Shown here one piece after another: positions 11,201 to 14,200 of a DNA stretch of 64,000 bases. The position numbers are program-made. How positions within the stretch are numbered: the first letter of the stretch is position 1; the number at the start of each line of letters is the position of its first letter. Source of the stretch: Escherichia coli (GTDB taxonomy: Bacteria > Pseudomonadota > Gammaproteobacteria > Enterobacterales > Enterobacteriaceae); NCBI RefSeq assembly GCF_036507355.1, contig NZ_AP027877.1. One strand, written 5' to 3'.

Positions 11201-14200
11201 TCATTGCGATAGAAGGGATAACGCTGATCATCCGTGCGGTCATCGCCTGATGCGACGCTGACGCGTCTTATCATGCCTACAAAATATGCCCGAATCGTAG
11301 GCCAGATAAGGCGCTTGCGCCGCATCCGGCATATAGCCGAGTAGAGGCAAAATTACTCTTCCCGGCCTTTACCCATACTTTTTTGGTCTTCATCCGGATA
11401 GTGTTTTTTTAGATATTCCAGGACGTTTTTATTGACCTTATGTTGGGTATACACCCACCCTTTCCAGTAATCAGGCTGGTCCAGGTAAACTTCTGGCGGA
11501 ATGGTGAAATCAGAAAGCGTTAACCATTCGGCTAACAGATCGGGGTTTCGTTTCTGTATCAACTGCAACAGCATAATCAGCGACATGGCAGAGGCAGGAG
11601 CCGTACTATCGCCGCTTAAATACTTCCACACTGTCGACCGGTTCGAACGAAAAAGGATCGGTAGCAATGCCCGGTCCAGATTCATTTCATTAAAAATCTT
11701 CTCAAATTCATTCATTTAAATTTTCCTGCCTTGCGTAAACCTCTTAAAAATTGAGATTTATCAAAGAAACGCATTTTAGCACACATCAGGAACCGCTTCA
11801 CGTTTAGTCCAGAAACGGAATTTATTTCGCTTATCAAAACAAGTCGTTACTCTTCTTTACGCTAAAATAGCATAAAATGACTTTCAAAATTATTTATTAA
11901 AGAAACGGATTAAATTTCTTATAGTCAGTGTTTGCGCTTACACAGGACAAAAATGCGCTTTACATCACACAAATGGCGGCGTAGATTTCGATCATATTGC
12001 AACGAAAATTAATTCTTATAGAAGCGCAAGAAGTTTCTATAAGAAACCAAAATAAACTTAATTTGATCGAGAAAAAATAAATGAAATCTGTAAAGTTGTC
12101 TTTACGGGCAGTCGTTGTTGCTACCATTGTGAGCCCATCTGCTTTTGCAGATGATACGGTTGAAGCGGCAGCGACAGAACTGACAGCGATTCACCCAGGT
12201 ATGTCTCATGATGAAATCGATCAAAAAATCAATCGCTTCATGATTCGGACAGGTAATACAGAAGCCGCGCAAGATTACCTGTTTTCTCATGGATATATGG
12301 ACCCACAGACAGGCGATAATATTTACCCCACCAGTACAGCCGTACAGACTGACAGCACTGTCACCGATAAAAACCAGGCAGATCGCGACGCGGCGCAAGA
12401 TACCGCCATTCAGAATGCACACAATATCGCAAGCATTGCGGCGGCAAATGCAGATGACGCCAAAAAAGCGCTTACCACTGCGCAATCTGCAATTGATGCG
12501 AACAAGGGAGCTATTGCTGATACTCAGAAAGATGTCGCAGATGTTAAAGCAAGTGCAGATCATGCCAACGAGAACGCTAATACCGCGTTGATGAATGGCC
12601 AGAAACTTTCCGGTGTCGTCAGCGACAACAAAAACCAGATTGAAAAAAACAGTACGGCGATTACCGAACAGCAGGAACAAATCACTGCCACGCAAAAAAC
12701 CGTTGCCGCCACTGCTGATGCGCAACAATCACAGTCTGAAGCCCAACAAACGCAGATTACAGAGCAACAGAAGCAGATCGCAGCCACAGAAAAAACGGTC
12801 GCTGCAATCGGCGATCCCCAGTCAACTGCGCATTATCAAAAGATGATTAATGCCAAACTGACAGCGCAAAATGAAGCCAATGAACGTTCAACCGCTGATC
12901 AGGGGCAGAGAATTAATGACCTGGCTTCCAATGTCGCGACGCAACAGCAAATCGATAGCGTGCAATACGGTGAACAAATTCGAAACCTTGCGCAAGACTC
13001 GGTCCAAACGCTCCAGGAGTTAACAAACACGCAAAAACGTGTTGCAGATAACAGCCAGCAAATCAATTCGCTCAATAACAACTTCAGTTCGTTGAAACAC
13101 GAAGTGGAAGATAACCGTAAAGAGGCTAATGCGGGTATTGCGTCAGCCGTCGCTATTGCTTCACAGCCTCAAGTTAAGACAGGTGATTTTATGATGGTGT
13201 CTGCCGGGGCGGGTACATTCAACAATGAATCTGCGGTATCTGTCGGTGCTTCGTTTAATGCTGGAATTCATACGGTAATTAAAGCGGGAGTCTCTGCGGA
13301 TACACAATCTGATTTCGGTGCGGGTGTCGGCGTGGGGTATTCGTTCTAATTTTAATAGCAATTTCTTATTCGCAATATTCCGCAGTTTATTTAAGGTTAA
13401 CAATGATGAATAGCTCCATTAAATCCTTTTCCCTGCTGGCTGTTATATTACTGGCTGGCTGTAGTTCACCCGCTTCCCGCATCGCAGATTGCCAGGCGCA
13501 GGGCGTCAGCCATGACACCTGTTATCTCGCAGAACAGCAGCGCCAGACGGCTATTTTAAGTGCTTCCGAAGAGCAGGCATTTAAAAATGCAGAAGCCGCA
13601 CAACATGCCCAGGCGGCAAAGAAAGCCATTTATAAAGGATTTGGCATGACCTTTAGAATGAGCAGTAAAAACTTTGCTTATCTCAATGATTCATTATGTG
13701 CAATTGATGAAAACAATAAAGATGCCACTGTTTATCAGTCAGGTCTGTATAACGTCATTGTTTATCATCACACAGGAAAAGTCGCCTTAATGAAAGAAGG
13801 CCAGTTCGTGGGTTATTTAAAATGAAGGAGCAAAGAAAAATACCCCTGACGCATATTATGATTATCGGTGCGTTTATTTTTGCCTTCTTGCAAGTAGTAT
13901 TATTAGCCTCCCTGGTTCACGCTGTGAATGTTAACAACGAAATCCAGGAAGGCTTATTTCAGTCGGGGCGCATTATGGTAGAAAGTTTGCAGCATATTCT
14001 TTCGGTGCAAACGGGGATTAACTGATTTTCACCCCGCCCGATGATGACAGCAGCCGGAGAGATTTTCGATAATCGGGCAGTCGGCGCTGTCATCACCGGG
14101 GCAGGCATTCGCCAGCGCCAGTAGCTGGTTGCGCATAGATTGCAGTTCTTCGATATGCCGTTCGATCTCCGCCACCTTCTCCAGCGTACGACGTTTGACG

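Follow-up and report, generated by a model that had tools for sequence, protein, structure and literature searches.

The terminator-less convergent junction of orf67 and cueR in Escherichia coli is an ordinary case of a family-wide arrangement

The closest described counterpart of the locus studied here is the cueR-ybbJ pair of Escherichia coli K-12, one of the 165 convergent excludons of strain MG1655 listed by ExcludonFinder, for which the criterion was an overlap of RNA sequencing (RNA-seq) coverage in ≥50% of 58 samples (Nucleic Acids Res 2025, PMC12288877). We analyzed a stretch of 64,000 nucleotides of E. coli DNA (NCBI RefSeq assembly GCF_036507355.1, contig NZ_AP027877.1), referred to here as the window, in which cueR, the gene of a Cu(I)-responsive MerR-family regulator, converges on orf67, a gene of 67 amino acids (aa) at the end of a genomic island that corresponds to O-island 29 (OI-29). 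Both loci have cueR packed tail to tail with a neighbor and no terminator in between (0 bp between the stop codons in K-12 and 3 bp here), and the cueR stop codon marks the exact point from which the two genome types are homologous. However, the partner is the NfeD-family gene ybbJ in K-12 and an unrelated membrane protein gene of OI-29 in the window; the partner operon, its promoter, and its regulation differ as well, and the RNA evidence concerns the K-12 pair only. As we describe below, nearly all enterobacterial genomes have a convergent gene that abuts or overlaps cueR, and here orf67 stands in the place of ybbJ.

Two other described systems are relevant. The pair hemH-aes, also in the ExcludonFinder list for K-12 (PMC12288877), is present in the window as well, where the stop codons of aes (53239-54198, + strand) and hemH (54195-55157, − strand) overlap by 4 bp (TTAG, 54195-54198) and form a second terminator-less convergent junction. 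It resembles the orf67/cueR junction in being convergent and very tight, so junctions of this kind are evidently frequent in E. coli, but both of its genes belong to the core genome, there is no island, and neither gene encodes a regulator. The second system is the bidirectional intrinsic terminator, which, in the SEnd-seq work of Ju et al. from 2019, was reportedly shared by convergent genes. Here too, two convergent transcripts would end in one short stretch with a stem-loop nearby, inside cueR; in contrast, the space between the genes lacks a GC-rich hairpin with an A-tract and a U-tract at its sides, and the sole strong hairpin is located in coding sequence, without a U-tract and without covariation. 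At convergent pairs, termination is aided by head-on collisions, which need stem-loops for their positioning (bioRxiv 10.1101/2022.10.23.513370). Neither cueR nor ybbJ is present in the supplements consulted from the eLife 2021 paper on 3′-end mapping, and a literature search on cueR together with antisense transcription or Rho returned nothing specific.

At the junction, orf67 (13822-14025, + strand) ends with the TGA at 14023-14025, and cueR (14029-14436, − strand) ends with the reverse complement of the TCA at 14029-14031. The two stop codons are separated by a TTT spacer (14026-14028), which is TTTT in E. marmotae and other Escherichia. As in a convergent excludon, orf67 and cueR are adjacent, face each other, and are both real genes. 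A previous sequence-only reading of this DNA had placed the two stops at 14025 and 14029, tail to tail and 3 bp apart, leaving no room for a terminator. The coordinates and the spacing were correct, and the second statement was borne out by a scan for the intrinsic-terminator consensus, which found no site at 13990-14060; none was concealed nearby. The spacing itself is not unusual, judged by the other pairs of the window and by cueR across the family: the gaps of the seven convergent pairs in the window are −4 (aes/hemH), 3 (orf67/cueR), 36, 62, 102, 132, and ca. 214 bp.

The identity of 14029-14436 as cueR is, from its sequence, certain. The 135-aa product matched the NCBIfam CueR equivalog models over its full length (NF007590, 308 bits with a cut-off of 244; TIGR02044, 206.6 bits with a cut-off of 147.4) and contains the Pfam domains MerR_1 and MerR-DNA-bind. 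The C-terminal metal loop (CPGDDSADC...CCHH) is conserved, and the gene is annotated as cueR in related genomes.

Several candidate elements around the junction were evaluated and discarded. A small CGGGG/CCCCG stem that spans both stop codons, with a 15-nucleotide (nt) loop, had z values of −0.76 and −0.24 against shuffled sequence and is disrupted by synonymous changes in one relative (L009); with this hairpin close to the shuffles and not conserved, and with the scan empty, a concealed intrinsic or bidirectional terminator was rejected. Within the opposite genes, terminator-like hairpins lie at 13826-13847 and 13587-13601 (− strand) and at 14388-14411 (+ strand); they were weak and, in number, not above chance. 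The hairpin at 13826-13847, which is followed by a U-run, has a predicted energy of −8.3 kcal/mol, lies 180 nt downstream of the cueR stop, and is lost in E. marmotae. Terminator-like sites numbered 9, versus 4.9 ± 2.6 expected. Promoter-like hexamers facing the opposite genes (14044-14073, + strand, and 13928-13899, − strand) carry no weight, with four hits versus 5.9 expected by chance, and an Rfam scan of 13300-14700 found no known RNA family.

In order to place the junction among E. coli genomes, positions 13300-14500 were compared by megablast with 5,426 complete genomes of the species. cueR was found in 5,424 of them and the island side in only 1,331, while in the remaining genomes homology begins exactly at 14029, that is, at the first base of the cueR stop codon. 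Downstream of cueR, OI-29 with orf67 is present in ca. 25% of the genomes, a gene of 407 to 409 aa or its remnant in at least 18%, and ybbJ in the rest. In K-12-type genomes, the TAA of ybbJ directly adjoins the cueR stop (0 bp). Nissle 1917, ST131, and 964 further genomes carry the 407- to 409-aa gene or a remnant of it after cueR, again at 0 bp where intact; of the 5,426 genomes, 271 have the complete gene and ca. 695 a part of it, and it matched no Pfam family. Coordinates of this gene where it abuts the cueR stop, in E. albertii, E. whittamii, Nissle 1917, and others, are 4409-5638 in locus L011, 4409-5638 in L014, 2530-3753 in L094, and 3530-4753 in L096. The full haplotype, with cueR followed by the 407-aa gene, orf67, the lipoprotein gene, and the adhesin gene, occurs in E. 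coli R32_14_1F and in E. whittamii; E. albertii has the 409-aa gene only.

The same packing extends to the family. Taking one genome per Enterobacteriaceae species with CueR (80 loci), we found the stop codon of the convergent neighbor at −50 to +5 bp from that of cueR in 77 of the 80 species. In 72 it lies at −14 to +5 bp, and most often the two stop codons overlap by 4 bp. The partner is ybbJ in 50 species, a DUF3142 gene in 25 (in the genera Citrobacter, Kosakonia, Phytobacter, and Siccibacter), and the 409-aa gene in 4, which makes orf67 the fourth unrelated convergent partner of cueR. The exceptions are two loci in which ybbJ ends 112 bp (L013) or 84 bp (L068) beyond the cueR stop and one (L045) without an identified neighbor. 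The sequence-only reading had implied that the layout was brought about by the island, which is wrong: cueR abuts a convergent neighbor in nearly all E. coli genomes and in those 77 species. The bare convergent boundary is a routine instance of an arrangement already known and is the normal state of cueR, not a product of the island. The less ordinary point is that, across the family, four unrelated genes abut one and the same stop codon.

Some of these loci have peculiarities of their own. In Citrobacter and some Kosakonia, Phytobacter, and Siccibacter, the DUF3142 gene and a 717-aa TPR-like gene are located between cueR and ybbJ (4408-7247 in L026 and related loci). The DUF3142 gene extends 4 bp into the end of cueR, or 11 or 44 to 50 bp in some loci, and in two the genes lie 0 bp apart. 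In E. coli SCPM-O-B-8794 (L013, 4310-4454), where ybbJ lies 112 bp off, the C terminus of CueR is altered and extended (...CCHHKAECLKTYPDEAQKT), and a sequence like the repetitive extragenic palindromic (REP) elements follows the gene.

The explanation that we favor, and that we consider moderately probable, is that the bare convergent boundary results from the constant packing of cueR, that antisense read-through is ended by Rho or by collisions, and that the two mRNAs have complementary 3′ ends with a small effect on CueR. Polymerases leaving cueR would run antisense into orf67, and those leaving orf67 would run antisense into cueR. The untranslated read-through RNA would then be ended within the opposite gene, mainly by Rho and possibly with the aid of head-on polymerase collisions. 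Untranslated antisense RNA is the class of transcripts terminated by Rho in E. coli, and in the read-through RNA of cueR C exceeds G over the initial 120 nt (C/G ratio of 1.7 to 1.8), which is compatible with Rho loading. With the two units expressed at the same time, their mRNAs would be complementary at the 3′ ends, a situation that RNA-seq indicates for the K-12 pair. What the sequence-only reading had put flatly, that transcription from each side would continue antisense into the other gene, stands as plausible, because there is no intrinsic terminator at or near the junction and an RNA-seq overlap has been published for K-12 cueR-ybbJ (PMC12288877). Since ExcludonFinder lists that pair, overlapping antisense 3′ ends at orf67/cueR are likely when both units are expressed. 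The effect of the overlap on CueR output is probably small, and a strong one is unlikely.

Several points weigh against this explanation. The C/G ratio is a crude indicator of a Rho site, and the overlap is argued by analogy with K-12, the RNA evidence being available for the K-12 pair only. Moreover, ExcludonFinder calls an overlap from coverage thresholds and does not map 3′ ends. The adhesin-lipoprotein-orf67 string may also be expressed too weakly to matter, and the AT-rich island (43.8% G+C and only 32% in the promoter region of the string) may be silenced. Finally, the strong hairpin predicted in the 3′ coding region of cueR could pause or stop polymerases and thereby limit the overlap.

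A possible but unlikely alternative, raised by the sequence-only reading, is a functional excludon, in which the convergent OI-29 operon and cueR would mutually lower their expression through polymerase collision and the action of RNase III on duplexed 3′ ends, coupling expression of the adhesin cassette to the level of CueR. The junction without a terminator is consistent with such a device, and the persistence of the abutment through four unrelated partner genes could reflect selection. Nevertheless, deletion bias predicts equally tight packing wherever no terminator is needed, and two of the seven convergent pairs of the window are equally tight. CueR acts allosterically at low copy number and, given this general knowledge, modest changes in its mRNA may not matter. 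The K-12 counterpart cueR-ybbJ is itself listed as an excludon (PMC12288877), and OI-29 genes are regulated during host-cell contact (PMC5826968), both of which would suit a functional role. On the other hand, deletion of OI-29 in O157 was reported to affect motility, via gmrA only, in a study outside the scope of which cueR and a copper phenotype lay (PMC5826968).

More doubtful is a role for the hairpin mentioned above as a real 3′-end element, be it a bidirectional stop that dispenses with a U-tract, a stem-loop that positions collisions, or a 3′ stabilizer of the cueR mRNA; the overlap would then amount to only ca. 70 to 100 nt. The hairpin derives from an imperfect palindrome of ca. 20 bp (14037-14104) within the last 25 codons of cueR that is predicted to fold on either strand. 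The predicted fold is strong (−51 to −52 kcal/mol for the surrounding 126 to 146 nt, with z about −4.5 on both strands) and is stabler than 99.8% of synonymous recodings here (z −4.1) and 96% in K-12. Along similar lines, the stem ends close to the stop codon, 8 nt before it here and 1 nt before it in K-12, and convergent pairs need stem-loops to position collisions (bioRxiv 10.1101/2022.10.23.513370). However, no covariation was found in 84 enterobacterial cueR sequences (22 pairs, of which one changed on both sides). Paired cells made up 79.3% in these sequences versus 79.6% in shuffles; of the 84 sequences, 44 break pair 38-81 and 26 break pair 35-84. In many species the fold is no stabler than their own synonymous recodings, the excess being restricted to some lineages, and there is a U-tract on neither side. 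Conserved codons for GDDS and GCCHH account for the complementarity. A conserved structured RNA in the 3′ coding region of cueR was rejected, given the lack of covariation and of a consistent excess over recodings, and the palindrome is, as far as predicted folds go, a physical feature of the cueR mRNA here and not a demonstrated element.

We give little credence to a broader, speculative proposal in which the cueR stop is a conserved “hard edge,” at which at least four unrelated genes (ybbJ, the DUF3142 gene, the 407- to 409-aa gene, and orf67) have independently come to stop no more than a few bases away across Enterobacteriaceae. Convergent transcription running into cueR without a terminator would then be selected in its own right, either as an excludon that does not depend on the partner or as collision- or Rho-based 3′-end formation that sets the CueR level, with the cueR palindrome as the positioning element.

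The conservation of orf67 shows it to be a real gene under purifying selection. Its product is predicted to be a single-pass membrane protein because it has one strongly hydrophobic segment (residues 14 to 32), a positive N terminus (charge of +2), and an acidic tail. The ATG overlaps the stop codon of the preceding lipoprotein gene (ATGA). Against E. marmotae and other Escherichia, the ratio of nonsynonymous to synonymous substitution rates (dN/dS) is 0.13 to 0.34, frame and length are kept, and the last 20 residues (48 to 67) are invariant. Homologues of 34 to 43% identity occupy the same position in two other genera. A YadA-anchor cassette of Pseudocitrobacter contains a 64-aa homologue (43% identity, E value of 2e-12) whose start overlaps the end of a lipoprotein homologue by the same 4 bp, and a 68-aa homologue in the enterobacterial genome L097 also follows the lipoprotein gene with the same overlap. 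orf67 belongs to a small family, with 18 representatives in a set of 1.84 billion proteins, neither Pfam nor NCBIfam contained a matching family, and the product is called by PGAP in related genomes as hypothetical protein WP_000664216. That orf67 is instead a chance open reading frame (ORF), which would leave no convergent pair and make the spacing meaningless, is very improbable: it is short, belongs to no Pfam or NCBIfam family, has no strong Shine-Dalgarno sequence before its ATG, and is outside the three OI-29 genes (z0638 to z0640) given for EDL933 (PMC5826968), but the dN/dS values with mostly synonymous changes and the homologues in the same position in other genera led us to reject a spurious ORF, as did the frame, length, and ATGA coupling kept across Escherichia, the clear transmembrane segment, and the PGAP call.

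The segment between the ybbJ and cueR stops (11251-14028) measures 2,778 bp, with 43.8% G+C versus 56% in its flanks, and position, gene order, boundaries, and absence from K-12 identify it, at the level of sequence comparison, as O-island 29 of enterohemorrhagic E. coli (EHEC) O157:H7. OI-29 of EHEC O157:H7 EDL933 has 2,643 bp with z0638, gmrA/z0639, and z0640 (Yang et al. 2018, PMC5826968) and has also been treated in PMC10877973. Like the window segment, it lies between ybbJ and cueR with the same gene order, which is identical in the O157-like strain 144 as well (2,634 bp from ybbJ to cueR). It differs in that three genes are given for it in PMC5826968, where the 67-aa gene and its junction with cueR are unmentioned. 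The length of the adhesin also varies by strain, with 422 aa here and 338 aa in strain 144.

The gene order in the window is qmcA (9878-10795), ybbJ (10792-11250), a REP cluster, a 120-aa gene, an adhesin gene, a lipoprotein gene, orf67, and cueR. The 120-aa gene (11353-11715, − strand), divergent from the adhesin gene, is a conserved hypothetical gene of OI-29 (dN/dS of 0.01 to 0.04) with a weak Pfam match of the helix-turn-helix (HTH) type (MqsA_antitoxin, E value of 0.08). It is possibly GmrA (z0639). The adhesin gene (12081-13349, + strand) encodes a trimeric-autotransporter-type protein of 422 aa, heads the string that ends at orf67, and has a promoter region of 32% G+C. Its C-terminal anchor matched YadA_anchor in Pfam (PF03895, E value of 9.4e-11, 42 bits with a cut-off of 22.7, residues 363 to 422), and the annotation of related genomes assigns it to the YadA family. 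The 140-aa lipoprotein gene (13403-13825, + strand; dN/dS of 0.06 to 0.10), which overlaps the start of orf67, encodes a signal peptide and an LAGC lipobox. Its homologues adjoin YadA-anchor genes in Pseudocitrobacter, Enterobacter asburiae, and L097, and this pairing of adhesin and lipoprotein (plus a small ORF) was seen in three other genomes. The Cys-rich N-terminal part of the lipoprotein gave a sub-threshold match to TraV (19.6 bits with a cut-off of 44.75), and a relative with 64% identity was named TraV (conjugative lipoprotein) by one metagenome source. Two REP-type palindromes follow ybbJ (11245-11345), the first of which contains the ybbJ stop TGA. The C terminus of YbbJ is LIIRAVIA here and in E. 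albertii versus LHIRAVSS in K-12, the K-12 ending resembling those of Salmonella (LRVRAVSST) and Citrobacter sedlakii (LHVRAITRS).

With regard to the history of the locus, the cassette (the small HTH-like gene, the YadA-anchor adhesin, the lipoprotein, and the small membrane protein) is found at this site in E. marmotae and further Escherichia as well, in a comparison covering relatives L003 to L009, L091, L093, and L097. Synonymous divergence between the window and E. marmotae is 0.27 to 0.52 for the island genes versus 0.48 for cueR. In L097 the cassette lies between fetA and qmcA, and in Pseudocitrobacter it lies beside a serine recombinase gene. Four recent acquisitions of OI-29 have been proposed (PMC5826968); an ancient presence followed by losses or allelic exchange would fit these sequences better than that, which suggests that OI-29 is an old, occasionally mobile cassette. 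Compared with the full haplotype (cueR, 407-aa gene, and orf67), the window type has a filler of 6 to 7 nt, AAA(A)TCA, in place of a 1.3-kb segment. The filler supplies the TGA stop of orf67 and is found at neither end of that segment, for which reason an origin of the junction by simple deletion is not supported.

On the other side, cueR is followed by a minus-strand type I secretion string (hlyD, ABC, giant Ig-like adhesin, and tolC types) and by ybaT, glsA, and copA. The ATG of cueR overlaps the stop codon of the hlyD-type gene (ATGA, 14433-14436), and for this reason cueR is the last gene of a minus-strand string of tolC-type, giant adhesin, ABC, hlyD, and cueR. Upstream of cueR, K-12-type and Nissle genomes (L002 and L094) retain ca. 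105 bp from the 3′ end of hlyD (14437-14540 in the window), with a 1-bp deletion, and the secretion island was therefore deleted in these lineages. The retained stretch is presumably the cueR promoter region. The giant adhesin (“BapA-related adhesin SiiEA,” 17771-37649, − strand) is split into three ORFs (17771-21436, 21486-29831, and 29877-37649) by a single change of frame and a single in-frame interruption; strain TUM13936, which is 99% identical, has an undivided gene of 7,227 aa, and the O157-like strain has an annotated pseudogene. Rfam matches above the gathering score in the window were an AgrB antisense RNA (2170-2258), two naRNA4/REP-type elements (44550-44627 and 45925-46008), sroB (51688-51765), and the dnaX frameshift element (59688-59752).

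If the overlap at the cueR stop is real and has consequences, the level of CueR would depend on the accessory gene behind cueR, which differs between E. coli lineages, and copper homeostasis would be tuned in a strain-specific manner while cueR itself stays the same. More probably, however, cueR does not require any element encoded downstream of it. In that case, cueR would be a clean natural example of a gene with no intrinsic terminator throughout a bacterial family and a convenient test locus for Rho- or collision-based termination at convergent genes.

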